Assembly: GCA_045862955.1 (NCBI GenBank)
Contig: BTVI01000001.1
Coordinates: 94,740-158,739, forward strand
Direction of reading: 5' to 3'
Origin: Fimbriimonadales bacterium
GTDB lineage: Bacteria > Armatimonadota > Fimbriimonadia > Fimbriimonadales > JABRVX01
DNA length: 64,000 nt
Within the stretch, counting starts at the first letter, position 1; each line of letters begins with the position of its first letter. The position numbers and the translations under genes are program-made. Below, piece by piece: positions 2,538 to 46,916 of the stretch. The notes under the pieces were generated by a model. It worked only from the letters and a program-made list of their open reading frames with translations. It searched no databases and was not told the DNA's origin.

Positions 2538-3251
2538 TCAGTCTCCGAAGAGCAGCAGCGCCAGCACCACACCCGCGGCGGTTAACAGAAAGGCGGTGCG
2601 TGTGAAGCCGCCGGATATCTGTTTCCTCCGCTCGGGTGAAGACGAATCGAGGACTGCCTTCCCTATTCCAAGCGGCTCCGAGATCTCGGCCATCATTTTC
2701 GTCGCGGCATCGTCGATCGCCGCAGTCATGACGCCGACTTCGTCACTCTGCGAGTCCCCGCTCGCCTTGCCGGTCACCGCGGCGCTGACGACGACGGTGT
2801 TTTCTTCGACGTTGTACACCTCGAGGCTGACGACGATACTGCCGCTCCGTGTTGCCTCATCGTAGTGGTAACTCTCAATGGAACCGGCGAGCGCAAAGGG
2901 CGTGCGGAGGATACGTCCTACCTCGACAGCGCGCCATGTGTCGCCCTCCGGGACGTTGAAGGGTGGTTCGGCCTTCGAGAGCGGCAACCGTCCGTCTTCC
3001 AGCGCAAGCTGAATCGGGGCGGAGCGGCGGCTATAGTAAAGCGGCCGATACTCGCGCGTCGCCTCCAGCTTGGCGAACAGGGAGGAACGAAGCAACTCCG
3101 CGGGGTGGAAGTCCTCGGGAGGCGCCAGGTCGTCCGGTACTCCGAACTCGAACACCGTAATCGGGGTCTTCATATACCCCTTCTGGGCGAACACACCCGA
3201 GGCCGCCAGGATCAGCAGTAGGACTGCCGCCGGCCACATCCGATACCGCAT
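2538..3251 (-). CDS. CsgG/LpoB/PelC-like periplasmic domain protein with C-terminal transmembrane anchor
   Basis: ATG preceded by AAGGAGGA. Signal peptide MRYRMWPAAVLLLILAASGVFAQ. The pattern ITVFEFGVPDD ... GRILRTPFALAGSIESY ... VVSLEVYNVEENTVVVSAAVTG is typical of the CsgG/LpoB/FlgO alpha-beta fold. C-terminal helix TAFLLTAAGVVLALLLFGD. Confidence 0.5.
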   Translation of the reverse strand: MRYRMWPAAVLLLILAASGVFAQKGYMKTPITVFEFGVPDDLAPPEDFHPAELLRSSLFAKLEATREYRPLYYSRRSAPIQLALEDGRLPLSKAEPPFNVPEGDTWRAVEVGRILRTPFALAGSIESYHYDEATRSGSIVVSLEVYNVEENTVVVSAAVTGKASGDSQSDEVGVMTAAIDDAATKMMAEISEPLGIGKAVLDSSSPERRKQISGGFTRTAFLLTAAGVVLALLLFGD

Positions 3252-3273: not shown

Positions 3274-6063
3274 CTAGCGCGTCAGCACGTGCGGTCGGAC
3301 CACTCGTGCGACCTGTCCGTCCTCAGTGACTGCCGCGACCTCGATCACGTACGTACCCGGGGGCATCGAGACGCCGCTTGTGTCACGCGTGTCCCAGACG
3401 TGCTGCTGCACTCCGCGAGTTTCCGCCCTGCCTGCCGCAAGCGTCCTCACCACCTGGCCCGAAGCGCTGAGGATGCGCACGGTGGTATTAGCTTCTGCGC
3501 TAAGCGAGTACTGCACGTTGACACCGCCCACACCGCGGGTCTGCGTGACGTTTAGGCCGGTGATCATCACCTTAGAAGGCGCGGCCGGCGTCATCTCCAG
3601 CTTGAAGCGCCTCTGGCCCTCCGTCATCTGGAAGGTGTAAGCGGAGACGCTGCGCAGGTTGCGCACCACGCCCGTCTGCAGGTCGGTCAGACGGAACCCC
3701 ACGTCCTTGGGCAACTGCGAGAGGTTGGGCCAGGTGAGCGTCACCTCACCGTCCCGATCGGAAGTCACCGTGAAGTACCAAGTGGCCTCGCGGTCCGAGG
3801 CTGGCCGAATGTCTTGCGCGTATGGGCCCGAGTCTGCCCCCCAATCGTTGTTTTCGATGGCCACCCTCAGCCTGCCGTCCGGTGCGGGCGGCGGCTTGGG
3901 CACATCATAGCGGTCGATCCCCACTGACGCACCTTCGGTTACACCGAAGAAGGTCTTGGTGTCGGCGGAACCGTTCGAGCGCGCGGCAACCTGCAGGCGG
4001 AAGTGGCCGGGGCGCGGTGTCCACGGATCGGGTCCAGCCGCCCGCGGCGAGCCACCGACGCCTACGGTGAAGACCGGCGGCCAGATGACATCTACGGGCC
4101 GAGTTGCCGTGATCCGCACCCAGTAGCCGCGTGCAGGCTCGATCGGTGTGGTGAGGTCTTCGGTGAAGGTGTACTCACCGAGTGCCTTGTCCCACCGATA
4201 CAGCACGCCGCGAATCCAGCCGAGGCCGATGGCCTGCTCCAGGGAACGTGCCTGGCTAGGATCGTCCGCACCAACGAATACGAGCTGCCCGAATGGAATG
4301 GGATACAGCCAGGGATTGCCAATCATCCGCCAGCCGGGCTGCAGATTGATCTTGAAGTCACTGGTAACCTGCCCCGGCGGTGCGCTGGCTCCCTCCAGTG
4401 CGAAGACCGTGTCCTCGCCTGCGTCCAACCAGATCCCTTCGCCCCGAACAGCGTTCGTGACAGGGATGTAGCGGCCGGTGGTCGGGTCAACACCGATCGT
4501 CCGCAACCCCGGAGTGCCGAAGATGGCCTCGAAGCGGGTGTCACTGAATACGAACGGCAGCGTGACCATGTCGTATCCGTCGGTGACCTTCATCTTGTTC
4601 ACCGCAGGGATGTAGATGCGGTTCGTGACACTCTTGGCATTCGCAGGGGGCGGGCTGACGATGACGCGGTACTCGACGATACCGTTCACTGTGCCGTCGG
4701 CGACCACGTTCCACTTGACCGTAGTCGAGCGCCCAGCGGCGATGCGAGGGATGATCTTTTGCAAAGTCTCGCCGGGAGCTACCGAGAGGCCGGGGGGCAG
4801 GGAGAGCAACACGCTGACGTTCGTGAGGTCCACCTCGCGGTCAACGACCGAGTACCCGTTCGCCACGAGGGCAGAGATCGTGAAGGGGCTCGGAGCCAGG
4901 CTGTTCGGGCTGCTGGGATCGAACTGCAAGGCTCGGGGGGCTTCGGTCGTAACGGCCACTGGCACCTCGATGTTACTAGCCGCATTCGCCGAGCTCATGT
5001 ACTGCACGATACGTCTCCCGGGCCGCACCCCGAGGTCGCCGGGCACGTTGACGGGAACGTTGATGGGATTGTGGAACACCGCATAGGACGGGTCGATGAT
5101 CGGGAGGTCCGGTACCGTGAAGCCGTTCCATTGGACTCCCTGCAATAGGCGCCCCACGGACATGAACTCGATTCGATCGGCTGTGGTCAGGTCCGGGTGA
5201 CCGGAGTCGGGTTTGAGCCAGTGCCGGAAGCTAGGATAGGGGTCGCTCTGTCCCCAATACACGTCGAAGTATGGGGGGAACTGCGCAGTGCCGACCGAAG
5301 TTCGGTCTGCGATGTAGTCGGTGCTTCTCGGTCGCAGTCCGGGAATCAGCACGTACAGATTGTCGAGGAACCCGCGTCGGTCGCCATTTACGAACTGCCC
5401 GGGCGCGCGCTTTCGCATTGCGGTCCAGTGGCCGAAGCGCATCCCGATCTGAACGGGGTTTTCCGTGAAGTTATAGAAGTCCCACTGGAAGCGCCACGTG
5501 TCGCCTAACACGTCGATGCGCAGGTCCACCCAGACGTTGGGACCTCCGAAGTCCCACAGCCCCCGAATGTATGCGCCGCTGGCACCGATGTACGGCGCCA
5601 GACGCCAAGAGGTTCCCTCGCCGAACACCTTGTCGGTGGTAGTTTCCCCCTCGATCACGCGGATCGTCGCATAGCACCAATCGCCACCGGCGAAGGGGTA
5701 GCCGAAGGTAACAGCACAGTCGTCATCGGCTGTCGTCTGCTCGGACCCGGTGCCATACCCGAACGCGAACCTACCGCTGCCATCGGCGGAGATCGTCGGG
5801 TCGAAGCAGCCTTCCTCGGAAAAGTTGTAATTCTGCTCCGGGTCCCCCGTGGTGTCGTCGGCATCGTTGCCCCACGTCACCTGTCCGACGCTATTAGTAA
5901 AGATGTTGATGACCCCGTTCGTGAGCCCCAACAGGTTCTCCAAGTAATTTCCGGCGAACGGTGCGTCACCAAGACAGCCACGCCACGTCTGCGCAAGGGC
6001 AAACGTCGGCACGAGCATCATAGCGGCGATTAGGACCTGCGCGACCTTACGTTGGACAGCCAT
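3274..6063 (-). CDS. large secreted protein, unassigned N-terminal region plus conserved C-terminal module ending in a FlgD-Ig-like domain
   Basis: SD GGAAGGAG upstream. Signal peptide MAVQRKVAQVLIAAMMLVPTFALAQ. The last ~431 aa (3274..4569) are homologous to the C-termini of the 6082..8991 and 10853..16546 products. Terminal TVRILSASGQVVRTL..WDTRDTSGVSMPPGTYVIEV..VLTR is FlgD-Ig-like. Confidence 0.7.
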   Translation of the reverse strand: MAVQRKVAQVLIAAMMLVPTFALAQTWRGCLGDAPFAGNYLENLLGLTNGVINIFTNSVGQVTWGNDADDTTGDPEQNYNFSEEGCFDPTISADGSGRFAFGYGTGSEQTTADDDCAVTFGYPFAGGDWCYATIRVIEGETTTDKVFGEGTSWRLAPYIGASGAYIRGLWDFGGPNVWVDLRIDVLGDTWRFQWDFYNFTENPVQIGMRFGHWTAMRKRAPGQFVNGDRRGFLDNLYVLIPGLRPRSTDYIADRTSVGTAQFPPYFDVYWGQSDPYPSFRHWLKPDSGHPDLTTADRIEFMSVGRLLQGVQWNGFTVPDLPIIDPSYAVFHNPINVPVNVPGDLGVRPGRRIVQYMSSANAASNIEVPVAVTTEAPRALQFDPSSPNSLAPSPFTISALVANGYSVVDREVDLTNVSVLLSLPPGLSVAPGETLQKIIPRIAAGRSTTVKWNVVADGTVNGIVEYRVIVSPPPANAKSVTNRIYIPAVNKMKVTDGYDMVTLPFVFSDTRFEAIFGTPGLRTIGVDPTTGRYIPVTNAVRGEGIWLDAGEDTVFALEGASAPPGQVTSDFKINLQPGWRMIGNPWLYPIPFGQLVFVGADDPSQARSLEQAIGLGWIRGVLYRWDKALGEYTFTEDLTTPIEPARGYWVRITATRPVDVIWPPVFTVGVGGSPRAAGPDPWTPRPGHFRLQVAARSNGSADTKTFFGVTEGASVGIDRYDVPKPPPAPDGRLRVAIENNDWGADSGPYAQDIRPASDREATWYFTVTSDRDGEVTLTWPNLSQLPKDVGFRLTDLQTGVVRNLRSVSAYTFQMTEGQRRFKLEMTPAAPSKVMITGLNVTQTRGVGGVNVQYSLSAEANTTVRILSASGQVVRTLAAGRAETRGVQQHVWDTRDTSGVSMPPGTYVIEVAAVTEDGQVARVVRPHVLTR

Positions 6064-6081
6064 ACTCGTCGTAACTCCTTC

Positions 6082-8991
6082 CTAGCGCGTGAGCACCACG
6101 GGGCTCACGACCCTAACCTGTTCGCCGTTCGAGCCGGTGGCAGTGACCTGCGCCAGGTACACACCCGGCGGCATCGAGACGCCTGCCTGGTCTCGGCCAT
6201 TCCACACGGCCTGGTTAGCACCGGCAGCACGAGAGCCGGTGGACAGCATAGCCACTTGCTTCCCGGTCTGGGAGAGGATGCTAACGCTAACATGGGCCTC
6301 GCGGTTCAACGAGTACACCACCGTGTAGCTCACACCTCCTCGACCTTTGGACGACGTAACTCCCAGTCCCGTTACCATTAGCTTAGCGGCAGAGCTCGGG
6401 GTTGCCACGACCTTGAAGAGCCTGGGTGTTCCATCTGCAGCGGGTCGGAAGCTAAAGCTGCTCGTATGGTTCATCGAAATCCTGCGCCCGGATACCGTAT
6501 CCACGAGCGTGTAGGACACTCCCGATGCCGAGCGGACGATCTCCTCCCACTCCAACGTGACTTCACTATCGTTGTTAGGCGCCGTTACCGCTAGGGTCCA
6601 TTCGATGTTGTGCGCGCTAGCGGGCTTGAGAACCTGGGCGAACGGTGTCCGGCCGTCATCGCCGACTATTGTTAGTCTCACCGAGTCGATCGGTGCAGGG
6701 GCTTTCGGCACCGTGTCATAGGACGCATTCGGCTCTGCGGTCACACCGATGTAGTTGCGTGCGTCGCGCATGCCGCCTGCCGTTGCGGCGAGACGCAAGG
6801 CCCATCCATCGCCACGAATCGCGGGGCGGTCATCACCCGGAGCACGGGAGGACGTCGGAAGGGGGTGAATGATCAGCCTGCACTCCTTGCGGCAGTAGAC
6901 CCAAGCACCTTCCCAAGGATAAAGCTGGCCCTGTGGCGCTGCGCGCCAACTATATGCGAGCTCCGTGGGGGACCAGCGATAGATCTGCGGCCGGATGAAC
7001 TCGTCCGCGATGGCCTCTTCCAGGCTCATTCGCTTGTTGACGGACTGCACCTCGACCGAGTTCCAGTCCACCACGAATGGGAACGGGTTGCCGAACATCT
7101 GCCAACCCGGCTTCAGTCCGATGCTATACGAGTTGTCGGTGTCCGGCGGGTTCTGCACCGGGAGGGGCGTTGCCAGCGGGATGGTGAGGAAGTAGCCTAC
7201 TCCGAAGGGTCGGAAGTCGCCGGAGACACCAACCTTCGTGACGTCGGCATCGGGCGGAGCGAAGGATGCCCTTGCGTCGCTGGTATCCGACTGGGTGTAG
7301 CGCGCCCACTCCCCATCGGGCACCGGGTTGCCGTTTCGATCCTGGTAAACGAAGCGCTGAAGGCGGAACGTACCGGCGATCAGTTGCTCGGGTCGAGCGT
7401 TCCCAACACCGTACGGCACTGCGAACATGGCAGTTCCGGCGGGCTGTACCCTGGGTTGCACTCGGAAGGTCCGCGTCGGCACAGGCGAGATGGGGTTACC
7501 GTTGATTGCACTAGTAGCAGTTACCGAGAGTGTGTGGGAGCCGCTGGAGAACGCCCGCGTGAAGTCGATCTCCGAGAAGACACTGTCAATCGGTGTGATG
7601 GTGCCGTGCGGGATCACGGTCGTGCCGTCGCGCACTACCACCGATTCCGGCACTACGTTTCCGAGTCGGATACGCACTCGAATGTTCGTGTATTCGAACA
7701 CCTCGTTGGCTGCCGGAGACAGGAACTGAACCGACCCGCCGAACCGTCGCAGTGCCTCGAACAGGTCGATCTCCCCGTAACCATAGTCGGGGTTCGGAAC
7801 ACTCAAGTTGTGTGTATTAGCGGAGGAGCGGAGCACGTCGAATACGTCTGTTGCAGCGACTCCCTGAGAAAGCAACATCGCGATGGCCCCAGACGCCATA
7901 GGAGCGGCAAACGACGTGCCTACTGCCGTAGTGTAGATGCCACGCATGTCCATGACTGTAGTGGCTTCCGAAGGCCCGTATCCGTCTCCAGCCGGTGCTG
8001 CGAAGTCGACCTTGCGGCTTCGGTCGGTGGAACCCGGATTGGAGTAGCTGGCAATAGAGCCGCCCCGCGCTGTCGCTCCAATCGAGATGACGTTCGTGTA
8101 GCTCGCTGGCCAACCTGCCAATAGGGGTCGGTCATTTCCCGACGACGCGACGATCAGGGTGCCTTGGTTGAATATCTGGTTGATCAGCTCCTCTTCTCGT
8201 GCACTTCGGTTATAGCTACCAAGGCTGAGGTTGAGGACCGCGACTTTAGGTGTGCGCGAGTTGTTGTAGTCAACCACCCACTGGAGTGACTCCTCGTACA
8301 AGGCTGCAGAGAAGAACCAGGGGTTATCTGTTGCGCGGATTGGGAGAATCTTGATACCCTCCCAGCACACGCCGGCCATGCCGATCGCGTTGTTCGTTGC
8401 CGCGGCAATCACACTGGCAACCATCGTTCCATGAGAGTCGGGCCAGTTGGCGTCCGGGCTAGGATCGTTGCTGTCGTCATCGGCGTTGTAGCCGGGAAGC
8501 ATTCGGGACTGCCCGCCTCCGAGTTGGAAGTCGGGGTGCGAAATGTCTACCGACGTGTCCAGCACGCAGACGACGATTCCGTCTTTGCCCTTCTGGAAAT
8601 CCCAAGTCAGATGGACGTTCATCTGCTTAAGATTCCACTGCTGTGGATACAAGGGATCATTCGGGGTCTGCTCGTGGCGGAAGTACTTCCAGTTCGGCTC
8701 CGGGTTTCGGACTCCGGGAAGCTCGGCAAGTTCCTTCGCCTTCTCGATAGCAAGCTGAGAGGCGTTCGGCATCGCTGCCTGCTTAATGCGGAGCAGAAAG
8801 GAGTTTGGCACTCTCATAGCACGCACGAACTCCAGCCCGTTCGCCTCGGCGAAGGCTCTCGCCTGTGCAATGGTAGTACCTGGTGCCAGCGTCACACGGA
8901 TCTCTCCGTTGACGACGTCACCCGCCTCACTCGACTGTGCAGCTCCTGCTGCTGCCAACGCGAGGCCCAGTCCAATCAGCCATAGTCTCAT
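6082..8991 (-). CDS. secreted subtilisin-family (S8) serine protease with I9-like propeptide and the conserved C-terminal module
   Basis: Catalytic motifs VCVLDTSVDISHPDF (Asp), HGTMVASVIAA (His) and GTSFAAPMASGAIAMLLS (Ser). Signal peptide MRLWLIGLGLALAAAGAAQ. Propeptide-like GEIRVTLAPGTTIAQARAFAEANG. The last ~450 aa (6082..7434) are the shared module ending PPGVYLAQV..VVLTR. Confidence 0.85.
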   Translation of the reverse strand: MRLWLIGLGLALAAAGAAQSSEAGDVVNGEIRVTLAPGTTIAQARAFAEANGLEFVRAMRVPNSFLLRIKQAAMPNASQLAIEKAKELAELPGVRNPEPNWKYFRHEQTPNDPLYPQQWNLKQMNVHLTWDFQKGKDGIVVCVLDTSVDISHPDFQLGGGQSRMLPGYNADDDSNDPSPDANWPDSHGTMVASVIAAATNNAIGMAGVCWEGIKILPIRATDNPWFFSAALYEESLQWVVDYNNSRTPKVAVLNLSLGSYNRSAREEELINQIFNQGTLIVASSGNDRPLLAGWPASYTNVISIGATARGGSIASYSNPGSTDRSRKVDFAAPAGDGYGPSEATTVMDMRGIYTTAVGTSFAAPMASGAIAMLLSQGVAATDVFDVLRSSANTHNLSVPNPDYGYGEIDLFEALRRFGGSVQFLSPAANEVFEYTNIRVRIRLGNVVPESVVVRDGTTVIPHGTITPIDSVFSEIDFTRAFSSGSHTLSVTATSAINGNPISPVPTRTFRVQPRVQPAGTAMFAVPYGVGNARPEQLIAGTFRLQRFVYQDRNGNPVPDGEWARYTQSDTSDARASFAPPDADVTKVGVSGDFRPFGVGYFLTIPLATPLPVQNPPDTDNSYSIGLKPGWQMFGNPFPFVVDWNSVEVQSVNKRMSLEEAIADEFIRPQIYRWSPTELAYSWRAAPQGQLYPWEGAWVYCRKECRLIIHPLPTSSRAPGDDRPAIRGDGWALRLAATAGGMRDARNYIGVTAEPNASYDTVPKAPAPIDSVRLTIVGDDGRTPFAQVLKPASAHNIEWTLAVTAPNNDSEVTLEWEEIVRSASGVSYTLVDTVSGRRISMNHTSSFSFRPAADGTPRLFKVVATPSSAAKLMVTGLGVTSSKGRGGVSYTVVYSLNREAHVSVSILSQTGKQVAMLSTGSRAAGANQAVWNGRDQAGVSMPPGVYLAQVTATGSNGEQVRVVSPVVLTR

Positions 8992-9039
8992 CTAGACCAC
9001 CTCGAATGTCCGAGTTCGCACACCGTGTGAGCTGCCAAC

Positions 9040-10800
9040 CTATTTCCCCGGCGAAGGGGGCGGCGGCGGCTCGTCAACCGGAGTGAACTCCCATGGCTCA
9101 GAGAAAACGAACCGATTGCCATTCTTATCCGGCACAGGTCCGGGCGAGTCGTTCAGGTTTCGTGCACCCACCCTCCAGTAGAGCCGCTGGGCTCCAGGGA
9201 ACAATCCGCGAATGTCGAGCGTGTCACTACTCAGTATCCCGCTCTGCTGGGTCGTCGGCAGGAAGAACACGTTGCGCACCGCTGTTCCTCGAGGGAACGT
9301 AAGGTCGCGCGATACCTGCACCACGTAGTAGTTAGCGCCGGGCACCGCTCGCCACGAGAAGCGAACGCTCTTCAAGTTCACGCTTTCCGACCCATTGACC
9401 GGCTGTTCGAGCCCCACCTGTTCTAGGACGGTAGCCGTGCCGCGGGCGTTCACCGGATCGCTCTCGAAGAAGCAGTCCGTCTGCTGGTCTCCTCCACCAC
9501 CGGGAAGGTCAATAGACTTTACGCGGTAGACCAGCGAGAGCGAGTAGTTGTAGGTGCGCCCCGGGACCAGGGCCACTTCCGTCCCTTCCTCAGTGCCAGG
9601 GTCCTCGATGCAGTCGGTACCGGGGCCGATTAGCTCGATCTGGCGCCAGTTGAATGCGAGTGGCGCGGTGTCGTCAATGAAGAAGTTCTCGGTTCCGAGC
9701 ACTACACCGATGGGCGCGTTCGCCACGTCGTTCCGCCAGATATGCCACTCTACACGGGTGTAGTTTGCGATTGCGAAGAGGTTCGGGTTCCAACTAACCT
9801 TCACACCCGACCCCCGAGCGGGGTCGAATATGGCTTCCGTCGTGAGGTCGTTGGTCGCCGTATTGCTCCCGCCTCCTCCCGGACCCGTGATGAGAGCCAG
9901 GACGAGCCCGACCACGAGCGCGGTTACGAAAATATTGCCGAGGTTCCTCTGTTTCGGTGCCCCTCGGATCACCTTGGTTCCGACAATCTTGAGTTCCTCG
10001 ACGGGGAAGATGGCCCTAGCTTTGTCCCCTGGCCGAACACCTTTCGTGCTTTCGACCACGGCGGCTTCGGCATCATCGGCGGAGACTTCGATGACCTTGA
10101 TAGTAGCCACATAGTCACCGTAGCGGAGGACGAGCATCTCCATGCCGGGGCGGATGCCTTCGCGCGCACCCTTATTCATCAAGACTTTCTGGGGGTTCGC
10201 GAACAGGATGGTAGCATCCGGGATTTTCAAGCTAGAGATCGTGGTGACGGCCTCGAGGGCGGCAAGTTGGATGGCCTCTTGCACGAGAGCGTCTTCGCCA
10301 CCGGTCATTCCGACCCGGCCCGTGCTTTCACCGACCACGCCACTGGCGCCACGAATAGCCCTACCCGACGCGGAGTCGTACACGTACACACTCATCACGA
10401 CGCGCGCCCTGAGGGGGTTCTTCGTGATCAGTACTTGGTCCACGGTGCCAGACACGATGGCCTCGCACTGCAACTCCTGCCCGATCTTCAGGTACTTCAG
10501 ACGATCGAGCGGAGGCGCCATGCCCAGGTCTTTGAGCGTCTGGTCCACGGTGTTCTTTGGCAGCACGTCGTATCGCTGGCTCTTGCTCAGCTCGATGCGG
10601 ACGCTGTCGGTTGCCATGGCTGCGGTCGCTGCGCCGCCGTAGTCGGATCGGTTCACGAACTCGACCACTGCCCAGCTGGGTAGCTCGACCTGCGCCTGCG
10701 CTCGTCCGGCGGAGAACCCCTGGTAGCAAGTCAGGAGCATGCTTACCACAAGCACTCGGCTGATAGTGCGCGCCAATGGCGTATTGATGAAACGTCTCAC
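9040..10800 (-). CDS. bitopic membrane protein: N-terminal CsgG/LpoB-like domain, central TM helix, C-terminal FN3-like domains, Pro-rich tail
   Basis: GTG start with GGAGGAG 7 nt upstream. Motifs WAVVEFVNRSDYGG..ATDSVRIELSKSQRYDVLPKNTVDQTLKDLG..IGQELQCEAIVSGTV fit the CsgG/LpoB/FlgO pattern. TM helix NIFVTALVVGLVLALITGPGGGG. After the helix come beta-rich repeats (VKVSWNP..; VRFSWRAVPGANYYVVQVSRD..YWRVGARN). Tail is PPPPPSPGK. Confidence 0.6.
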   Translation of the reverse strand: MRRFINTPLARTISRVLVVSMLLTCYQGFSAGRAQAQVELPSWAVVEFVNRSDYGGAATAAMATDSVRIELSKSQRYDVLPKNTVDQTLKDLGMAPPLDRLKYLKIGQELQCEAIVSGTVDQVLITKNPLRARVVMSVYVYDSASGRAIRGASGVVGESTGRVGMTGGEDALVQEAIQLAALEAVTTISSLKIPDATILFANPQKVLMNKGAREGIRPGMEMLVLRYGDYVATIKVIEVSADDAEAAVVESTKGVRPGDKARAIFPVEELKIVGTKVIRGAPKQRNLGNIFVTALVVGLVLALITGPGGGGSNTATNDLTTEAIFDPARGSGVKVSWNPNLFAIANYTRVEWHIWRNDVANAPIGVVLGTENFFIDDTAPLAFNWRQIELIGPGTDCIEDPGTEEGTEVALVPGRTYNYSLSLVYRVKSIDLPGGGGDQQTDCFFESDPVNARGTATVLEQVGLEQPVNGSESVNLKSVRFSWRAVPGANYYVVQVSRDLTFPRGTAVRNVFFLPTTQQSGILSSDTLDIRGLFPGAQRLYWRVGARNLNDSPGPVPDKNGNRFVFSEPWEFTPVDEPPPPPSPGK

Positions 10801-10852
10801 TTCAGTTTCTCCTCCGTAATCCGGATTCTCATACCGATCCTTGGTGTGCGCC

Positions 10853-13800
10853 TTAGCGCTTCAGCACAACAGGCGTCACGGCGCGAGCGATCTGGCCGTC
10901 TTCGGTCGTGGCTCGCACTTCAATCGTATACATGCCGGGCGGCACGGACACGCCGCGGCCATCTCTCCCATCCCAGGTCACTGACTGCACGCCGGCCGAC
11001 GCTACTAACCGATTGTCGATCACACGCACCGGCTTGCCGGACGGCGCGATCACGGTCACCTGCACGCTCGCCTCGGTCGAAAGAGTGAAGCTGATCGAGG
11101 CGGCACCACTCCGAGTCGCCTGAGCGACGGGGTTGGTGATACGTAGCACTCGATTCGCCGAGATCGACTCGATGCGGAACTTGCGCACTGCACCGTCCGA
11201 AGGCACGAAGCTGTAGGACGAGGTTGACCGCATGAACACACGCTTGCCGGCTTGCTCGTCCACCAGAACGAGGTTCAGATTGCGAGGCAGTTGGCTCATC
11301 GCGGGCCAGCGCAGTGTTGCCTGCGTCCCAGCGCCGCTTGTCTCCACGACGAAATTCCACACTTGTGTTCCGGCGACCGGGCCGCGAACGTCGGAGACAT
11401 ACCTACCCGATCGTGCACCCCAATCCGTGCGAGGTACGTACACACGTACATACTTTTCTTCATCGGAGGGCGGACGCGGGAAGTCGTATCGGCTGTCGAA
11501 GCCGTCCGTCGCGCTGTTCGACACCCCGATGAACGCTGCCGTATCCTGAAGCCCCGTCTCTGTGTAGACGTGGATGGGCAGACGCCACCCATCGCTTAAG
11601 CGTGACCAATCCGACCCGTCGGGTCCGTATGCCCTTCCGTCACCACCTGGTGCAGAGCCACCAGACGGATCCACTAGCAACGTTACGTCCTCATAGGCCA
11701 GGAACCATGCACCCTGATACTGTCCGAGTGTTAGGCTCTCGTCCTTCACCAGGAAGCCAGACTGCATCTTCCAGATGATAGGCACTACCCAACCGGCAGC
11801 CACTGCCTCGTTATATCCGAGCACTCCTCCCGGCCCACTGACGAAGCTGTTACCCAGCCGCACATCGAACTGGAACGGATCGCCGATGAGGTTCCACCCG
11901 GCCTTGATAGCGATTGGATAGATGTTATTCGGGTCGGCCGGCGTGCCTGGCGTCGTGAGCGCCATGTTCGTGTCGTTAGATAGGAAGTAGCCTCGGCCTA
12001 GGCGGAACCGGTCTGCCGGTGCCATTGGGTAGTTGAGGAACAGCTGCCTGTCCACGTCCCAAGCCGTCAGCTTGAAGTTGGGCCCGCCATTGAGCAACTG
12101 CTTCGGGTCTTCGGTCAGGTAGTTGAACGGAACCGAGATCAGGTTAGTAAACCGAGCGAAGTTGGCCAGCGGCGTCAGAATGATGTCGTCAGCGTACTTC
12201 GGCAAGCCGTCCGGCGGGGTATCGCCGTCCGGTACCGTCACGGTGATAGGCGCCGGCGGCCGGAATCCGGTCCCAGTGGTATCCACATGCACCGTGTACG
12301 CATTGATGTTATCACCGAGCTTGCAGCCAGGCGCGGCGAACTCGTAGTTGTAGACGTTGCCGCCCGAGGTGATCGGGGGCGAGAACGTCACCGTGTTGCA
12401 CACCGTCACGTTGTTCAGCTTAACCAGCACGGGCAGACCAGCGGGTGCGGCCTCGTAGCTGCTACCGCTGAGTCTCGTCTTCACGTAGCCGCGGAGTGTG
12501 CGAGGCGCAACTGGCGACAACTGAACGTCCTGTGTGATGGTGAACCCTGACGGCACATTCACCGAGATATCGTTGCGGGTCCGGAATCCGAACGCCGACA
12601 CCACTAGAGTGTAGTTGCCTGCGGGAAGGTCTATGCCGCTCGCCGCGAAGTCGTACTGACCATTCGCGTCGCTCAGCACGGGACCATACGTGACTTGCTG
12701 CCCGAAGCGCGTGATGCGTGCGTTGAGCTGTGCACCAGGGATGACTGGGTTTCCAGCTTCTGTCGAAGTCACGGTCCCTATGAGGTTCCCAGGCGGTCTA
12801 AAAATGATGAACGTGTCGGAGCCGGGTGGGTCCGGGTTGCCGGTATTGATTGTGGTCGTCACCCCGGCATCCACCACTACCGTAGCGGATGGCGGCTGGC
12901 TGGTATCCGAGAATCCAATGGCGGTACCATCTACCGTCACCGTCCAGTTGCCGCGGTTGCAAGTGATCAAGAAGCGACCCTCGCTGTTCGTGAGACCAGA
13001 GACAGGCGGAATGGTCGGGAAGTCCGATGTCAGTGTGACCGTAACGTTGCCCACTGGCGAGCCGTTCTCGTCGACGACGCGGCCGGTAACGGAACCCGGC
13101 GGCTCCTTTGTAATGATCAGGTTGATAGTATTAGCATCTTCCTTGTTGACCTGTCCACCGTGGATGCCCAGGATCACTTCGGGGTGCTGAATGCGGAAGC
13201 CGGGCTTAACCGCATCTACGAAGTAGTGACCCGGCAGCAGGCCGGTGATCACATACTCACCATTGGAGTCTGTTAGGGCCGCTCCCAGAACTTGGCCTAC
13301 CGTCGTCGGATCCTTTCCATTGCCACTGATCCAGCGCACCAGGACGCCGGGCTCGGGCTTCTTCTCCAAAGTATCCGGGTCGATCGCCTCGACCTTGCCA
13401 TACGCGCGGGCCGTTCTCATCCAGCAGAGCATGCCGTGGAGCTGCTCATAGCGCCGACTGTCCGACCAGGCCACGTCCCCATACAGCGGTACCGTAATGA
13501 CGCGGTGCGAGGAGTGCACGCCCTCCAATCCGTAGGACAGGAAGACCGTCTTCGCCCGCGATGCATGGGTAGCAGCTACCGAAGCGAACCCACCCGACGC
13601 ATATCGGTATGGTCGCCACACCGACGGAATCGAGATCGTACCGACTGCGTTGATCGAATCGATCCAGAGCTGATTCCACGCACCGTCAATGGTGACCGAC
13701 CCGGCAACTAACACACCCGGAGTCTGGAGCTGCAGACCGAAGGGGGTCTTCACTAACTGCGCAGGATCGGCCAAGAAGTTCTGCGTGGACCAATCGTCCA

Positions 13801-16546
13801 GCTCGCCATCGGGCCTAGGCCAGTGGTAGTCCCATGGTCCGAGGACAACTGGGTCACCCGGTCCACCTTCCACGACGTCGCCGGAGTCGATCAACCGATG
13901 GCGTGAGGCGTTATAAGTGCCCACTTGGATATCCGGTCCGACGTCGTCCACATACTGCACTTTGAAGTAGTTGGTCAGGAAGGTGCTGGGTATCTGACCA
14001 CCCTGTGTTAGTGCCCAGGCTATATCCTGGCCACTAAGGACGAGACGGCCTCCCGCATCGAGATACTGCTGAACGACCTGTCGCACCTCTTGTATGTGGA
14101 TACCGACGCGCTCGGTCCACAGGTCCCCCGCGTATGGTGCCGCCCACACTACCGCGCGTTCCGCCACCAGCACTTGGCGGGTCTGCAGCGGGTTGTTCGG
14201 ATCCACCTGTTGATCGAGTCGTGGCAGGTACTGCGCAAGGGCGGTCAGCGGGATGGGACCCCGGCACTGAGTTCGCCAGATGTCGGCTTCTTGATAAACG
14301 GCGGTCGGGCCGAGGGTGTCGAGCGTCTCGCCCGTTCTGGGGTACGGCTCACCCCATGGGGCAGGCAGATAGAACTTGTCGCGAACGCCAGCCGTGGTAT
14401 AGAACCATGCGTTCTCTCCATGCGTGGCGGGGTTGCGCAACCAATAGCTTTCTACCGGTGCCCATGTCGTACGTGCGAACAGGCGGCCGAGCAGCGGATC
14501 GAAGTTCAGGTCTTGCGCGAAGAGCTGACCTGCTATGTAGTCCGCAACGAACAGGATCGGGTTTCTAGCAGCGAAGAGCTGCGTAGTAAAACCGGAGATG
14601 TTGTCGTAAACGAGCTGATTGCCTGCGACGTCCTCTACGAGCAGGTCGAGGTAGAAATCGCTCGGCTGCAGGGGTGTCACCCATGTGTTCGTGTACCAGT
14701 TGTCTCCTGCAACCTCACCTTCCGGCTCGTGGCCCCCTTCGCTAACCGGTCCGTCGTCGAAAAGCTGGAGGCCGTCTCTCAGATCGGATTCCCCCACCGT
14801 GCCGACGAACAGTACCCAAGGGAAGGCATAGTTGTAGGTATATGGATTCACTACCTCTTGCCCGATCTCGACGAACAGGTCCATCTTTTGGCCGGTTGCC
14901 GGGAAGGCACGTTGGCCGAACGGATCCGGCAGGTCTCCGCGGAGCTTGAGGTAAAGGCGATGCTCAACGCCTTCGCTGTCCACCTCGGCGCCGTCCGGGT
15001 CCTTGAACTGAGCGTACACGTGCTTGACGCCGGTCTGGAGGTCGGTGACCCACGCTTTGATTTTGATCGGTTGCCCAGGCATGCCCTCGCGTGGTTCGAC
15101 GATGGGCAACACCTCGAGCATGGGCGGCGACGAGTCCACGAAGAGCCCGATCCAAAGGTCATGGAATCCGTCTTTCTGATTCACGGGTGGGTTCGGCCTG
15201 TCCGAAACATAGACTAGCCAGTTGAGGCGGAATGCCTCCGTCGGATCCGTCGCACCCTGCTTACCAGTGGTATCTCCCGCGGGGTCCGCCGTGTAGGCGA
15301 TTGGGGTATTGAGCGCGTTGTCCTCAGGGACCTCGGGGCTGAACTGATAGATATCGTAGCTGTTACCAACGCTGTTAGCCGCCACACGGATGCTCAGCTT
15401 CCCGTCATACCGAGCTTTGCGCGTAGAAGCGAAGAGGATTCGTGCGCCATCGCTCCGCCAGACGGGGTCGCGGTCTTTGGAGGGCGTGCCACCAGACTGG
15501 AAGTTGGTCCAAGGCATCGCACCATCCAACGGCATTCCCAACACGTACATGTACAAGCGCTCACCGGTGGCTGTGCGGCGCGTGAAGATGATGCGCGAGC
15601 CGTCAGGCGACCAGTCGGGGTCCACGTCATCCGCACCCGGGGGTGGCTCGGTTAGCTGCCGGGTGAAGGCCCCGTCCGGATAGGGCGAGCCGTCCGCCCG
15701 AGAGCGATAGAGTTTGTACGGCCCACCGGTTGCAAGCCGGGCCGCAAACACCACCTCGGTCCCTCCGGGGGAGAAGGCAGGGTGGATGCTGTCGCCGAGG
15801 GGGCGCACCGGATCGTAGTTCACTCGGATTGGAGGGACGTTGGTGCTGAGATATCGGACGTAGATATCGAAGTTACCCGACCCGACCGTGCTGCGCCGCG
15901 AGTACACGATAGCATTCGAGGCCAAGTTGCTGTCTGGATAGCGCTGCTCGCCGAAGCGTTCCTCCGGTAGGTTCGGATCATTGCCCGTAATCTGCTGCGC
16001 GTTCAGCCCCTCCATATCACATCGCCAGATATGGTACGCCTGGTTTACACCGTCCCACACGAGACGCCCGGTCGAATCGACGCCGCTCGCATTCGAGGAG
16101 AACCAAAGACGTGTATCGCCCTGGGCAAACTTGGGCTCTAGAACGTCGGCGGCAGTCAGCGTGATGTCTCGGTCTTGAGGCGGGCCGCCTCGGGTAGTGC
16201 CTTGCCACCGTGCGGCGAGGCTCTCCTTCGAGAATGGCAGATGCCTGGCGATCTCGAACGGGGTCTGTATTACCGGGAAGGTGACCACGTTCTTCTCCGG
16301 CACCCCCGGAATACGCTCCACCGACTGCGCTGGAGGAAGTTCCTTCCGATACTGTTTCGTTCGGACGAGACCGCTCCGGTCGGCGAGCTTCGCTGCGTCC
16401 CCGGGCGGGGGAGGGGTCTGCGAGAAAGATGAACCAGGAGAAGCGAATAAGAGCGCGGCGCTGAGAATAACGCCAACCACCGTAGCGCCTTTAGGTTTCA
16501 CTGGGCACTCGACCTCCTCAATCACCGTCGCCGGTAACGCCTCCAT
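10853..16546 (-). CDS. giant (1897 aa) secreted multidomain protein: TolB-like PD40 beta-propeller, unassigned central region, CarboxypepD_reg-like repeats, conserved C-terminal module
   Basis: PD40 motifs FSPGGTEVVFAA, DWSPDGSRIIFT and PVWRSDGARILFAS. CarboxypepD_reg-like repeats such as VTGRVVDENGSPVGNVTVTLTS..SEGRFLI. The last ~437 aa (10853..12166) are the shared module ending PPGMYTIEV..VVLKR. Alternative start GTG at 16501 lies 11 nt after GAGGAGG and directly before the hydrophobic signal segment. Confidence 0.8.
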   Translation of the reverse strand: MEALPATVIEEVECPVKPKGATVVGVILSAALLFASPGSSFSQTPPPPGDAAKLADRSGLVRTKQYRKELPPAQSVERIPGVPEKNVVTFPVIQTPFEIARHLPFSKESLAARWQGTTRGGPPQDRDITLTAADVLEPKFAQGDTRLWFSSNASGVDSTGRLVWDGVNQAYHIWRCDMEGLNAQQITGNDPNLPEERFGEQRYPDSNLASNAIVYSRRSTVGSGNFDIYVRYLSTNVPPIRVNYDPVRPLGDSIHPAFSPGGTEVVFAARLATGGPYKLYRSRADGSPYPDGAFTRQLTEPPPGADDVDPDWSPDGSRIIFTRRTATGERLYMYVLGMPLDGAMPWTNFQSGGTPSKDRDPVWRSDGARILFASTRKARYDGKLSIRVAANSVGNSYDIYQFSPEVPEDNALNTPIAYTADPAGDTTGKQGATDPTEAFRLNWLVYVSDRPNPPVNQKDGFHDLWIGLFVDSSPPMLEVLPIVEPREGMPGQPIKIKAWVTDLQTGVKHVYAQFKDPDGAEVDSEGVEHRLYLKLRGDLPDPFGQRAFPATGQKMDLFVEIGQEVVNPYTYNYAFPWVLFVGTVGESDLRDGLQLFDDGPVSEGGHEPEGEVAGDNWYTNTWVTPLQPSDFYLDLLVEDVAGNQLVYDNISGFTTQLFAARNPILFVADYIAGQLFAQDLNFDPLLGRLFARTTWAPVESYWLRNPATHGENAWFYTTAGVRDKFYLPAPWGEPYPRTGETLDTLGPTAVYQEADIWRTQCRGPIPLTALAQYLPRLDQQVDPNNPLQTRQVLVAERAVVWAAPYAGDLWTERVGIHIQEVRQVVQQYLDAGGRLVLSGQDIAWALTQGGQIPSTFLTNYFKVQYVDDVGPDIQVGTYNASRHRLIDSGDVVEGGPGDPVVLGPWDYHWPRPDGELDDWSTQNFLADPAQLVKTPFGLQLQTPGVLVAGSVTIDGAWNQLWIDSINAVGTISIPSVWRPYRYASGGFASVAATHASRAKTVFLSYGLEGVHSSHRVITVPLYGDVAWSDSRRYEQLHGMLCWMRTARAYGKVEAIDPDTLEKKPEPGVLVRWISGNGKDPTTVGQVLGAALTDSNGEYVITGLLPGHYFVDAVKPGFRIQHPEVILGIHGGQVNKEDANTINLIITKEPPGSVTGRVVDENGSPVGNVTVTLTSDFPTIPPVSGLTNSEGRFLITCNRGNWTVTVDGTAIGFSDTSQPPSATVVVDAGVTTTINTGNPDPPGSDTFIIFRPPGNLIGTVTSTEAGNPVIPGAQLNARITRFGQQVTYGPVLSDANGQYDFAASGIDLPAGNYTLVVSAFGFRTRNDISVNVPSGFTITQDVQLSPVAPRTLRGYVKTRLSGSSYEAAPAGLPVLVKLNNVTVCNTVTFSPPITSGGNVYNYEFAAPGCKLGDNINAYTVHVDTTGTGFRPPAPITVTVPDGDTPPDGLPKYADDIILTPLANFARFTNLISVPFNYLTEDPKQLLNGGPNFKLTAWDVDRQLFLNYPMAPADRFRLGRGYFLSNDTNMALTTPGTPADPNNIYPIAIKAGWNLIGDPFQFDVRLGNSFVSGPGGVLGYNEAVAAGWVVPIIWKMQSGFLVKDESLTLGQYQGAWFLAYEDVTLLVDPSGGSAPGGDGRAYGPDGSDWSRLSDGWRLPIHVYTETGLQDTAAFIGVSNSATDGFDSRYDFPRPPSDEEKYVRVYVPRTDWGARSGRYVSDVRGPVAGTQVWNFVVETSGAGTQATLRWPAMSQLPRNLNLVLVDEQAGKRVFMRSTSSYSFVPSDGAVRKFRIESISANRVLRITNPVAQATRSGAASISFTLSTEASVQVTVIAPSGKPVRVIDNRLVASAGVQSVTWDGRDGRGVSVPPGMYTIEVRATTEDGQIARAVTPVVLKR

Positions 16547-16606: not shown

Positions 16607-17320
16607 CTAAACATGGACGCGCGACGTTCTTCGCAGGTTCGCCAGAATCGCCTCCACGCGCTTTCGAACCTTTTCCGGTGGGCGATTCGTCGTCACCACG
16701 AAATCAGCATACGGCCTTCTCTCCGCGTCAGAGAGTTGCGCCGATAGTATTCGACGGGCCAGAACCGCATCTCCTTCCCAGCGTTCCACCAGTCTCCTCA
16801 TCTGCTCGTCTCGTCCGCAACGACACAAGATCACGCGGTCGAACTCACCTTGGACGCCGGCTTCGACGAGCAGTGGGATTTCGAAGCAGTGGACGCCGCC
16901 AGCAGACTGCGCAGACAGCTCTTCGAGCCGAGCCAAGATAGGCCCGTGTAGCAGCGATTCGAGCGTGTGCCGAAGCGCATCGTCCTCGAAGATGCGTCGG
17001 GCGATGAACCGTCGGTCGAGTTCGCCATTCGGCAGCGAAGACCCAGGTCCCACGGCTCTAGCGACTGCCTTTGCCAGCGGACTACCTGCTCGGGTTAGCT
17101 CGCGAGCCACGTCGTCGGCGCTGAATGTGGGCACGCCGAGCTCTGCGAAATAGCCGAGGACAGTGGACTTCCCGGTACAGGCGCCCCCGGTGATCGCCAC
17201 GCGGATCGGAACGCGAGGTTCGGAAGTCTTAGTGCCGCTTAGCGAACGCGAAGCGGCACCAGAGTTCGGTCTTTGCAGCACCCGGCCGGCCGTCCTAGCC
17301 TCGCTAGGAGGGCGTCTCAT
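16607..17320 (-). CDS. coaE: dephospho-CoA kinase
   Basis: P-loop VAITGGACTGKSTV followed by FAELGVPTFSADDVAREL, a CoaE-like layout. The N-terminal ~40 aa are Arg/Ser-rich and overlap the rpsA 3' end by 17 nt, so the true start may be further downstream. Confidence 0.8.
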   Translation of the reverse strand: MRRPPSEARTAGRVLQRPNSGAASRSLSGTKTSEPRVPIRVAITGGACTGKSTVLGYFAELGVPTFSADDVARELTRAGSPLAKAVARAVGPGSSLPNGELDRRFIARRIFEDDALRHTLESLLHGPILARLEELSAQSAGGVHCFEIPLLVEAGVQGEFDRVILCRCGRDEQMRRLVERWEGDAVLARRILSAQLSDAERRPYADFVVTTNRPPEKVRKRVEAILANLRRTSRVHV

Positions 17321-18824
17321 CCGAAGCGGTGCCTACGGCTGGAGCCTCAGTGGTCGCGTCCACGGACTCCGCTTCGCCAACGGGCTCTGCTGCCACAGGA
17401 GCTTCGGGAGCCGAAGGATTTTCGACTGCGGGCTCCACTGTGCTCTCTGCCTCCGCAGCGGCTTCGGGAGCGGACGGCACCTCGGCGACCTGCTCAACTT
17501 CTGCCGCAGCATTCTCCTCCGATTCCCGGGTGAGAACATCCCTCAGAGACCCAAGGCGCTCGCCGATCGTCGCACCACCCCTGTGGCTGGTACGACCGTG
17601 TCGTTCGACTTCTTCACGCTCCGCGCGGCGCTCCAGCGCCTTCAGGCTGACCACCATGCGTCGCTCTGGCGCCCGAATTTCTATCACCTGGCACTGGATG
17701 GTCTCGCCCTCTGTGACCAGTTCCGACGGGCGGGCGCCCCGTCTGTGGGTCATCTCGCTAATCGGTAGCCAGGCCTCCACACCCTCGTTGAGCTTTACGA
17801 ACGCTCCGGACTGCACGAGGCGCGACACTGGAACTTCGATGATCTGGCCAACCTTGTATTTGTCCGCGACGATGCTCCACGGATCGGGCTGAACCTGACG
17901 ATAGCCCAGGGAAATCTTGCCGATCTCCGGGTCGAGGCGGAGGACCTTGACCTTGATTTCATCGCCTTCCTTCAGAACCTCGGACGGGTGGTTTATGCGT
18001 GTCCAGGACATCTCGCTCACGTGCAGCAGGCCGTCCACGCCGCCGATATCGACGAAGGCACCGTAGTCCACGATCCTGCGCACCTTGCCGTCCACCACCT
18101 CGCCGACGCGAAGGGAGCTGAAGATGCGCTGCTTCGCCTCTTCGCGTCGCTCCTCTTCTGCCAGCCGGTTAGACAGAACCACCTTACGCCGCTCTCGGTC
18201 GATTTCGAGAATGCGAAGCGGAAGGCTCTGTCCGACGAAGCGCTCGATGTTCCGGAGTTTGCCATTGCCCACGTGGGTCGCCGGGACAAATCCACGGACT
18301 CCAATGTCCACGACGAGGCCACCCTTGACCCGCTCTGTGACCAGTGCGGTAATGATTTCCTGACGCTCGTAGCAGCGCTCGATCTTGATCCACCAGTCCT
18401 CGAAATCCGCCCTCTTCTTCGACAAGACCGGGTTGCCATCGGAACCCTCGGTGTTCAGAACGACCACAGAGATCTCATCGCCCGGTTTCACGACACCCTC
18501 AGCAGTCGGGATGGGCTCGGCGCTCAGCTCGGCAAGCGGGATAATGCCCTCCGTCTTTCCTCCCATGTCCACGAAGACGCGTTCGGGTTCGACATGGACG
18601 ACGATGCCGCGAACCAACTGCCCTTTAGAGAGGCGACGGAAGGACTGGTCGTACTCCTGCCTCAACGTGTCGTCTTGGAGAGCCTCTTCCATAGAGGCAG
18701 GCTCTTCCTCGCCTCTGGAGACGGCCGTACTCGGCTCAGGCTGGGAGGCCCCGGCTGCGGTCGGGATGTCGTCGCCTGGTGTGTCGGTCGGAATACCAGG
18801 CTCAAGTTCCTCGTCAATCATCAC
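17304..18824 (-). CDS. rpsA: 30S ribosomal protein S1 (multiple S1 domains) with acidic/Ala-Pro-rich N- and C-terminal extensions
   Basis: Repeated S1 motifs: GQLVRGIVVHVEPERVFVDMGGKTEGIIPLAELS, GEVVDGKVRRIVDYGAFVDIGGVDGLLHVSEMS and GQIIEVPVSRLVQSGAFVKL. Start is GTG 18824 or ATG 18821. Confidence 0.9.
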   Translation of the reverse strand: MMIDEELEPGIPTDTPGDDIPTAAGASQPEPSTAVSRGEEEPASMEEALQDDTLRQEYDQSFRRLSKGQLVRGIVVHVEPERVFVDMGGKTEGIIPLAELSAEPIPTAEGVVKPGDEISVVVLNTEGSDGNPVLSKKRADFEDWWIKIERCYERQEIITALVTERVKGGLVVDIGVRGFVPATHVGNGKLRNIERFVGQSLPLRILEIDRERRKVVLSNRLAEEERREEAKQRIFSSLRVGEVVDGKVRRIVDYGAFVDIGGVDGLLHVSEMSWTRINHPSEVLKEGDEIKVKVLRLDPEIGKISLGYRQVQPDPWSIVADKYKVGQIIEVPVSRLVQSGAFVKLNEGVEAWLPISEMTHRRGARPSELVTEGETIQCQVIEIRAPERRMVVSLKALERRAEREEVERHGRTSHRGGATIGERLGSLRDVLTRESEENAAAEVEQVAEVPSAPEAAAEAESTVEPAVENPSAPEAPVAAEPVGEAESVDATTEAPAVGTASDETPS

Positions 18825-29394: not shown

Positions 29395-29560
29395 CGTGCC
29401 GCAGGGCTAAGGAACCTCGCCAGCGCGAGTCATGTTTAATACGACTGTCTGCACAGGCCCCGTCACCGTGGAATGGCTCGATGGCGCCTCGGGGCTTCCC
29501 GGCCAAGCCGAGATGCGAAACCGGCCGGGTGCGGATTGTGAGGAATCTAGGAGGTACTGC

Positions 29561-38124: not shown

Positions 38125-38126
38125 GG

Positions 38127-44657: not shown

Positions 44658-45115
44658 AGTGCCTCTTTTCCGGTATGACCGAAGCCGCCGCTCCCGCGTT
44701 CCGTCTCGGGGAGATCGGTTACCACTCTGAGCTCAGCCCGGCTCACCGGCGCGATTACCATCTGCGCGATGCGCTCTCCCGGCTGTATGGTGTACGGCTC
44801 TGCGCCCCAGTTGATGAGGATTACCTCGATGACACCGCGATAGTCGGCGTCCACCGTACCCGGCGAGTTGACGAGACCGATTCCGTGCTTGTCGGCGAGA
44901 CCGCTCCGCGGCCGGACCTGAGCCTCGTATCCGTCTGGCAGGGCGATGCGGACCCCGGTAGAAATGCGTGCTCGCTCGCCGGGTACTAGCTCTACGGGCT
45001 CGTCGCAGTAGGCATGCAGGTCCATCCCGGCACATCCGCTCGTTGCATACGCAGGCGGTCGCGCTCCGGGCTCGAGGCTCACTTGGACAGGTACGAATGC
45101 CGGTTCGTCGCTCAC
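44654..45115 (-). CDS. dut: dUTP diphosphatase
   Basis: [40 protein letters not shown] and the C-terminal [11 protein letters not shown] motifs. GTG start. Confidence 0.9.
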
Positions 45116-45234
45116 AACCCCGCATTGTGTCGCATTCGCCCTGGCTACGGCAGTCCGCGGCGAAAACCTTGGTTCCCGGGCCCCGACAATGGAAGAACGG
45201 AATTAGCGGAAGTATTGCGATGAGGAGACGCTCA

Positions 45235-46907: not shown

Positions 46908-46916
46908 CGCGTGACC

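Follow-up and report, generated by a model that had tools for sequence, protein, structure and literature searches.

A three-domain C-terminal cassette shared by three large proteins encoded in a conserved gene string of Armatimonadota

The DNA analyzed here is a stretch of 64,000 nucleotides (referred to below as the window) from a Fimbriimonadales bacterium (contig BTVI01000001.1, positions 94,740 to 158,739). It encodes three large proteins, designated P1, P2 and P3, which were found to share a genuine C-terminal cassette of about 440 residues composed of three all-beta domains, A, B and C. The N-termini of all three proteins look like signal peptides. The three genes are as follows.

3274..6063, minus strand: P1, 929 residues; signal peptide, domain of about 370 residues of unknown family, NPCBM_assoc/CARDB-like immunoglobulin (Ig) domain, A-B-C module
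6082..8991, minus strand: P2, 969 residues; signal peptide, Peptidase_S8 (residues 137-406), A-B-C module at 6082..7461
10853..16546, minus strand: P3, 1897 residues; signal peptide, PD40 propeller, long region of unknown family, three CarboxypepD_reg domains, A-B-C module at 10853..12193

The major data for the cassette were BLASTP comparisons of the full-length proteins. Residues 563-929 of P1 aligned with 615-969 of P2 over 372 columns (35% identity, E 1.6e-50), residues 470-929 of P1 with 1443-1897 of P3 over 472 columns (31% identity, E 2.8e-54), and residues 593-969 of P2 with 1514-1897 of P3 over 401 columns (30% identity, E 4.2e-38). A preceding sequence-only reading had proposed a common C-terminal module of 430 to 450 residues, and this was upheld by E values of 4e-38 to 3e-54 over 372 to 472 columns. 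The relatedness is not confined to the terminal 80 or so residues, and at about 440 residues the module is, as that reading had also stated, much longer than the C-terminal domain (CTD) of about 80 residues used by the type IX secretion system (T9SS). All segments outside these alignments gave E values of 0.35 or more, and the N-terminal parts were therefore deduced to be unrelated by BLASTP. Pfam assigned Peptidase_S8 to P2, PD40 and CarboxypepD_reg to P3, and FlgD_ig to the C-terminal end of all three, so that the described difference of the N-terminal parts (propeller, S8 protease and unknown) was borne out by both methods. For the N-terminal domain of P1 no PDB match was obtained, and Pfam gave only the NPCBM_assoc-like Ig domain. 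Comparison of a module profile with the six-frame translation located exactly three copies in the window. Identity among the three tails rose along the module, at 19-29% for domain A, 27-39% for B and 37-51% for C. Metatranscriptome contigs overlapped parts of the P1, P2 and P3 genes and of a neighboring gene for a 586-residue protein, which is weak evidence for transcription, and the window sequence is present in bioreactor and sludge metagenomes.

The domain boundaries were taken from an AlphaFold2 (AF2) model of the module, built from an alignment of 29 diverse relatives. This model reached a pLDDT (predicted local distance difference test) of 92.1 and a pTM (predicted TM-score) of 0.76 and consisted of three beta domains, with lower confidence in the 25-residue linker between A and B. 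In the model, B spans module residues 198-337 and C spans 345-438. An earlier model from the three window sequences only, with a pLDDT of 56, was discarded. In P1 the domains are located as follows.

4081..4596, minus strand: domain A, module residues 1-172; beta-sandwich (AF2); GWRMIGNPW ... RGYWV
3577..4005, minus strand: domain B, module residues 198-340; beta-sandwich (AF2); FRLQV..FFGV..A..G.D.YDVPKPP...TLTWPNLSQLP
3274..3564, minus strand: domain C, module residues 345-440 and the stop codon; FlgD_ig beta-sandwich; ends HVLTR-COOH

In general form, domain A has about 170 residues with the motif GWN[LM]IGNPF...GYWV, domain B about 140 residues with W.L...GV..A.DG.D..D.PKPP...TL.WP, and domain C, the FlgD_ig domain, about 95 residues ending in ...PLVLTR-COOH. 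Across 170 aligned modules, the most conserved positions (P1-module numbering) were P14, Y43, G52, G88, W89, N90, G93, P95 and W159 in A, W199, G218 and P235-P236 in B, and W401, G414, Y416, G427 and the last residue in C. The C-terminal consensus was G-Q/E-x-A-R-x-V-x-P-L-V-L-T-R-COOH, with arginine as the last residue in 163 of the 170. The four motif blocks listed by the sequence-only reading were all present, with small deviations in P1 and P2: block 1 of P1 reads GWRMIGNPW, block 2 of P2 reads EGAWV, block 3 of P1 has FRLQV rather than W.L, and block 3 of P2 has LEWEEIVRSA in place of WP..SQLP. Its module starts were nearly right; the alignments placed them about 10 residues further upstream, at about 4596, 7461 and 12193 instead of 4569, 7434 and 12166.

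Exhaustive comparison of a hidden Markov model (HMM) of A+B, from which FlgD_ig had been cut away, with 1.84 billion representative proteins returned 15,458 clusters at E <= 1e-3; of these, 8,120 reached E <= 1e-10 and 1,570 reached E <= 1e-30. Word-indexed searches with the module had given just 5-6 matches, perhaps as proteins sharing FlgD_ig filled the scored candidates. In the best 155 matches of the HMM search, the A+B match stopped a median of 94 residues before the C-terminus and 113 of the proteins ended in arginine. Thirteen of these 155 had no FlgD_ig but a further A domain after A-B (A-B-A'). Copies of A and B were also located in the interior of a protein from Candidatus Hatepunaea, annotated at NCBI as a T9SS type A sorting domain protein. 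From these two arrangements the three domains were deduced to be separable; the "one module" of the sequence-only reading is indeed a shared cassette, made up of three independent domains that also occur in other combinations. The occurrence of A-B and A' outside the gene string of P1 to P3 implies that at least A-B has a role independent of it. The three domains as internal duplicates of one another were rejected (hhalign probability at most 0.4%).

The A-B-A' proteins (P0061, P0078, P0079, P0086, P0088, P0094-96, P0102, P0119, P0136, P0141 and P0147; loci L077-L079) come from unclassified metagenome-assembled genomes (MAGs). One adjoins a chemotaxis cluster and another glycosyltransferases, and a comparable operon was rejected for them, the contexts examined being unrelated to that of P1 to P3.

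Matches to described families (Pfam, NCBIfam and PDB sequences) were found to reach only the last 80 or so residues of the module. Domains A and B, over module residues 1-340, matched no Pfam or NCBIfam family even at E <= 1 in the three window proteins, the 29 modules or 44 full-length relatives, and the A+B profile had no match among PDB sequences at E <= 10. Domain C passed FlgD_ig (PF13860) with 46.4, 41.3 and 47.2 bits in the last 75 or so residues of P1, P2 and P3, respectively, against a cut-off of 27, and the same family matched all 29 related modules. FlgD itself (3osv) aligned structurally with domain C (Foldseek, TM-score on the target 0.53). The likeness to FlgD is limited to this domain: the gene context is not flagellar, the N-terminal and Tudor-like parts of FlgD are missing, and the domain ends large exported enzymes. 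Public names of the relatives are "hypothetical" or "FlgD immunoglobulin-like domain containing protein."

Domain C also gave recurrent sub-threshold matches to components of the T9SS. These comprised TIGR04183, the type A sorting domain, which 18 of 29 members matched at E <= 1 (5.4e-4 at best), the C-terminus of PorU (24 of 29, best E 2.7e-5), PorZ (9 of 29) and a T9SS-dependent M6-like (M6i) protein (16 of 29), while Pfam Por_Secre_tail matched one of 29 modules at E 0.25. The AF2 fold and the median tail of 94 residues agree with an Ig-like sandwich of about 80-100 residues at the extreme C-terminus of signal-peptide proteins. From the sequence comparisons, domain C would appear distantly similar to the T9SS CTD, below threshold but recurrently so. 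In BFVD, a collection of predicted viral-collection structures, the best Foldseek match of the whole module was to a 587-residue "putative hemin binding protein" (483 columns, E 5e-15, TM-score on the query [TMq] 0.49), and several further BFVD matches bear the names of T9SS or gliding C-terminal sorting domains. Besides the Vpr fibril considered below, Foldseek matches in the PDB included WxLIP, GbpA, GH2 Ig domains and C5a peptidase.

The P1, P2 and P3 genes lie in a tight co-directional string in the order rpsA, coaE, P3, 586-residue protein, P2, P1, 237-residue protein, 645-residue protein. The additional members are listed below.

17304..18824, minus strand: rpsA, at the upstream end of the string; adjacency conserved
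16607..17320, minus strand: coaE, directly upstream of P3; adjacency conserved
9040..10800, minus strand: 586-residue protein; signal peptide, CsgG/LpoB/TolB_N-fold domain, FlgT_C/MreC-like beta domain, hydrophobic helix, two fibronectin type III (FN3)-like domains, poly-Pro tail
2538..3251, minus strand: 237-residue protein; signal peptide, PelC/CsgG/LpoB-fold domain, C-terminal hydrophobic helix
578..2515, minus strand: 645-residue outer-membrane candidate; signal peptide, Big_1/Invasin_D3 Ig domain, about 520 beta-rich residues, ends ...LAAPF-COOH

The sole promoter-like site on this strand was upstream of rpsA. The sole terminator-like site on the strand below rpsA was at 16475..16456, inside the P3 coding region, and is probably due to chance. 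The order P3, 586, P2, P1, 237, barrel candidate was the same wherever it was readable, in loci of Fimbriimonadales, Chthonomonadales, Zipacnadia and "WS1," and rpsA-coaE was directly upstream in at least 12 loci. Partner presence was counted in 76 loci, many of them incomplete: homologues were present in 63 for the 586-residue protein, 55 for the S8 part of P2, 48 and 42 for the N-terminal parts of P1 and P3, 37 for the 645-residue barrel candidate and 29 for the 237-residue protein. The co-occurrence with barrel and CsgG-like genes that the sequence-only reading had suggested counting was thus obtained, the module being tied to these neighbors in more than 70 related loci. Full-text literature searches on the phylum and on Chthonomonas, paired with FlgD, T9SS or secretion, and on PF13860 gave no paper on this operon or on a T9SS in the phylum.

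Several loci deviate in gene content. In L062, a Peptidase_C11 (clostripain family) gene (3848..5056) lies between the 586-residue homologue and the next module gene; in L067, L070, L075 and L076 there is likewise an extra gene at this point, and in these "WS1" and Zipacnadia-type loci, L062 included, the protein in the P2 position is not recognizably S8. A fourth module-bearing giant of 2029 residues is inserted in the operon in L011 and L043 (11318..17404). In L048, a 2866-residue S8 protein (6039..14636) has a weak A+B match (E 3e-20) and no adjoining FlgD_ig match.

Characterized members of the PelC/CsgG/LpoB/PqiC fold build rings under outer-membrane channels, and the two smaller partners were tentatively assigned to this fold from family-level data. 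In the 586 family, 14 orthologues were compared with Pfam: CsgG matched 7 (E 3.3e-10 at best), LpoB matched 5, and TolB_N matches also occurred, while PDB matches to LpoB and TsaP were weak. The 237 family profile matched PelC (5t10/5t11, E 4.4e-5) and 2iqi, a ring lipoprotein of PqiC type (E 0.018). Pfam CsgG matched 6 of its 14 orthologues (best E 0.0025), and LpoB matches occurred among the orthologues as well; these PDB entries were identified from PMC13631591, where PelC, PqiC, LptE, CsgG and FlgT are placed in one structural family and PqiC-like members are octameric rings at the outer membrane. Neither window protein itself had a Pfam match at E <= 0.01, and no conventional lipobox was seen by eye in either, the 586-residue protein having a non-standard L-T-C. 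As with PelC (with PelB), CsgG, PqiC and LptE (with LptD), the putative fold, in the 237-residue protein and in the N-domain of the 586-residue protein, occurs beside a candidate barrel. This likeness concerns the neighbors of the module and not the module; unlike those ring partners, both proteins carry a hydrophobic helix and the 586-residue protein adds the FN3-like domains. The helix of the 237-residue protein has basic residues before it and not after it. That of the 586-residue protein lies at about residues 290-312; were it to cross the inner membrane, the FN3 domains would lie in the cytoplasm, an odd arrangement, and a Wza-type helix spanning the outer membrane is conceivable.

The 645-residue protein is a candidate beta-barrel outer-membrane protein. 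Its Big_1/Invasin_D3 domain was present in all 14 orthologues, with a match to the intimin Ig domain at E 3.9e-7. An identity as LptD was considered and rejected: PDB LptD (7omm) gave E 0.41, and LptD_N and LptC each matched one of 14 orthologues at E 0.01-0.14. For TamB there was an insignificant hint only.

The history of the tails was deduced from module identities. Modules of the same orthogroup from different genomes were 0.40-0.47 identical, and those of different orthogroups 0.29-0.33, even when taken from a single genome. Since the modules cluster by orthogroup, the triplication predates the divergence of the sampled lineages, and recent duplication or gene conversion of the tails was rejected. 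As judged from these identities, the P1, P2 and P3 genes are ancient paralogues at their 3' ends. Domain A was the most orthogroup-specific (identity 0.44 within, 0.26 between) and domain C the least (0.46 within, 0.375 between), and it would fit with this that C serves something common to P1 to P3 and A something particular to each.

Within the scope of the fetched loci and the best-scoring library matches with typed passengers, the module that the sequence-only reading saw on "three otherwise unrelated giant proteins" is for the most part this common 3' end of three ancient operon paralogues and not a tag attached freely to many unrelated proteins. Other passengers do exist. Among 44 full-length relatives, the passengers were Peptidase_S8 in 25, PD40 or CarboxypepD_reg in 4-5, Peptidase_C11 in 2, and LVIVD, FG-GAP, Peptidase_C39-like and others in one each; the cassette has been re-used on clostripain C11, LVIVD, FG-GAP and additional S8 passengers, and single module proteins outside the operon were found in loci L061 and L001. 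A scan of one genome per GTDB species gave 264 relatives. Among the best 74 loci, all those with a named phylum or order belong to Armatimonadota (Fimbriimonadales, Chthonomonadales, Abditibacteriales, Zipacnadia and "WS1"). The Chthonomonadales loci include a Chthonomonas calidirosea MAG, and the closest relative was from a Fimbriimonadia MAG (61% identity).

Considering these data together, we favor, tentatively and with a probability of roughly 0.4, the reading that domain C is a common handle docking P1, P2 and P3 on an outer-membrane complex encoded by the operon, with A and B as stalk or attachment. In the proposed sequence, P1, P2 and P3 would be exported by Sec, and domain C, the part most alike among them, would be recognized by a complex of the Big_1 and beta-barrel protein with the two PelC/CsgG-fold proteins. 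A and B would form the stalk or attachment part, A being specialized for each protein, and the outcome would be an assembly, protease included, that is retained at the outer membrane or the cell surface. The cassette would then be a kind of C-terminal sorting or anchoring cassette, the new part being A and B, families for which the libraries searched hold no model.

Several points weigh against this reading. The localization, the partner that would bind domain C and the possible cleavage of this domain were deduced from architecture, conservation and synteny. Domain C of P1 scored 15.6 bits against the TIGR04183 cut-off of 23, and no T9SS gene, the core components SprA/Sov, PorV, PorU and PorK-N included, was seen in the searched open reading frames of the 64-kb window or beside the 70+ loci, whole genomes not having been scanned. 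Foldseek of the whole module against the PDB gave generic multi-sandwich matches only (TMq <= 0.23). The assignment of the barrel candidate was made from a sequence pattern and the terminal Phe. A and B are found in proteins that lack C and lie away from this operon, and a periplasmic housekeeping complex would account just as well for the conserved rpsA-coaE neighborhood.

It is possible, if doubtful, that the three tails instead bind each other or stack head to tail, giving a hetero-oligomeric protease complex or fiber for which the barrel and rings would be only exporter or anchor. The comparison would be to the dentilisin PrtP-PrcA-PrcB complex, where an S8 protease likewise shares an operon with accessory proteins, or to Vpr fibrils. 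This is supported by the retention of exactly three orthogroups in a fixed order across the phylum, by the strong orthogroup specificity of domain A, as expected for distinct non-interchangeable subunits, and by the sub-threshold match of P2 to dentilisin PrtP (NF033595, E 2.2e-26). We know of no shared three-domain tail in the dentilisin or Vpr systems, and no homology to PrcA or PrcB was found. The Vpr S8-peptidase fibril (8jmw), described in PMC10657474, was the top PDB Foldseek match of the module (E 2.4e-7), at a TMq of just 0.20 and among generic sandwiches. The module proteins outside the operon stand singly, and the co-assembly is compatible with the favored docking rather than exclusive of it. 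The generic Ig, Fn3 and carbohydrate-binding-like sandwiches, which were all that Foldseek gave in the PDB, would suit a passive spacer or glycan-binding tail without a sorting role, on proteins exported by another route (e.g., type II secretion) beside functionally unrelated neighbors. The quite different contexts of A-B in other lineages are consistent with this, as is the Fimbriimonas ginsengisoli genome paper, which reports genes for type II and type IV secretion, Tat and lipopolysaccharide biosynthesis and leaves T9SS unmentioned (PMC4072686). We consider a passive tail unlikely, as it does not account for the strictly C-terminal position and near-invariant terminal arginine, and as a fixed phylum-wide synteny with envelope genes would be hard to explain without functional coupling.

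A periplasmic complex stabilizing the envelope, in which the module would attach to peptidoglycan or to the periplasmic side of the outer membrane as part of a Tol-Pal/PorE-like tether or remodeling machine, was judged quite unlikely. Its parts would be the TolB-like propeller of P3, the TolB_N-fold domains of the 586- and 237-residue proteins and the protease, and the matches of the 586-residue orthologues to TolB_N and LpoB, together with the conservation of the string beside the housekeeping genes rpsA-coaE, are in its favor. So is the pairing of a PD40 propeller with CarboxypepD_reg in P3, a combination also present in PorE (PMC12204202). Against these, searches of all six operon proteins gave no peptidoglycan-binding domain (OmpA_C, LysM or SLH), the passengers elsewhere are typical extracellular enzymes or adhesins, and domain C is closer to export signals than to tethers. 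Finally, domain C could be the ordinary CTD of T9SS cargo, served by a canonical T9SS elsewhere in the genome, and this we regard as improbable. The recurrent weak matches to TIGR04183 and the C-terminal ends of PorU and PorZ point in this direction, as does the general arrangement, an Ig-like sandwich of about 90 residues at the C-terminal end of Sec-exported proteases or adhesins. T9SS type A domains carry a G.Y motif close to their C-terminus, and their final residue is basic; domain C shares both features. The A and B copies in the Candidatus Hatepunaea protein moreover lie upstream of a true T9SS CTD (TIGR04183/PF18962) in a protein of Fibrobacteres-Chlorobi-Bacteroidetes (FCB) type. However, the score of P1 is below the curated cut-off, no T9SS genes were seen in the window or around the loci as stated above, the conserved unit consists of three domains and not one, and the P1 to P3 genes are coupled with another barrel candidate and with PelC/CsgG-fold proteins. 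To our knowledge, Armatimonadota lie outside the groups that carry T9SS, and full-text searches that paired Armatimonadota or Armatimonadetes with T9SS yielded what appear to be only incidental co-occurrences of the terms.

A bolder form of the favored docking reading, which we hold to be rather doubtful, is that Armatimonadota possess an outer-membrane delivery and anchoring pathway of their own for large exported proteins. Its signal would be a T9SS-like domain C with the terminal arginine. Its translocon, unrelated to that of the T9SS, would consist of the Big_1 and beta-barrel protein and two PelC/CsgG-fold ring proteins. A and B would represent new modules for surface attachment, also placed upstream of true T9SS CTDs in FCB-type bacteria.

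The remaining genes of the window include a second kind of tail. Two secreted proteins of about 1000 residues (29432..32443 and 32722..35664, both plus strand) have in common another C-terminal cassette, in which a dockerin-like double repeat comes after a CarboxypepD_reg-like sandwich (…DVDNSNGVDLVDLNAILATFG…DLNWD..VNLVDLNIVLANFG..GAP-COOH), from which it follows that the organism uses at least two kinds of tail on giant proteins. A 715-residue open reading frame (39896..42043, plus strand) had modest matches to family-B DNA polymerase and its exonuclease domain (E 1e-11 and 5e-8). The gene at 36694..38520 (minus strand) matched Pfam Cytochrom_C552, the family of the nitrite reductase NrfA, at E 4e-157, which points to nitrite ammonification. 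Encoded at 44968..46812 (plus strand) is a second PD40/DPPIV_N protein that lacks the module, and an M16 peptidase gene pair follows it (46911..49534, plus strand); these are envelope or proteolysis genes unlinked to the cassette.

Armatimonadota are a diderm phylum of Terrabacteria whose cell envelope appears little characterized. The operon described here is a gene string that links three exported proteins with a common tail to a candidate outer-membrane channel in four named Armatimonadota lineages, and as such it is a concrete, testable candidate for protein display or export in this phylum, for which a cultured species-level relative, Chthonomonas calidirosea, exists. Models of domains A and B would further improve the annotation of many proteins now named "hypothetical" or "FlgD Ig-like domain containing."

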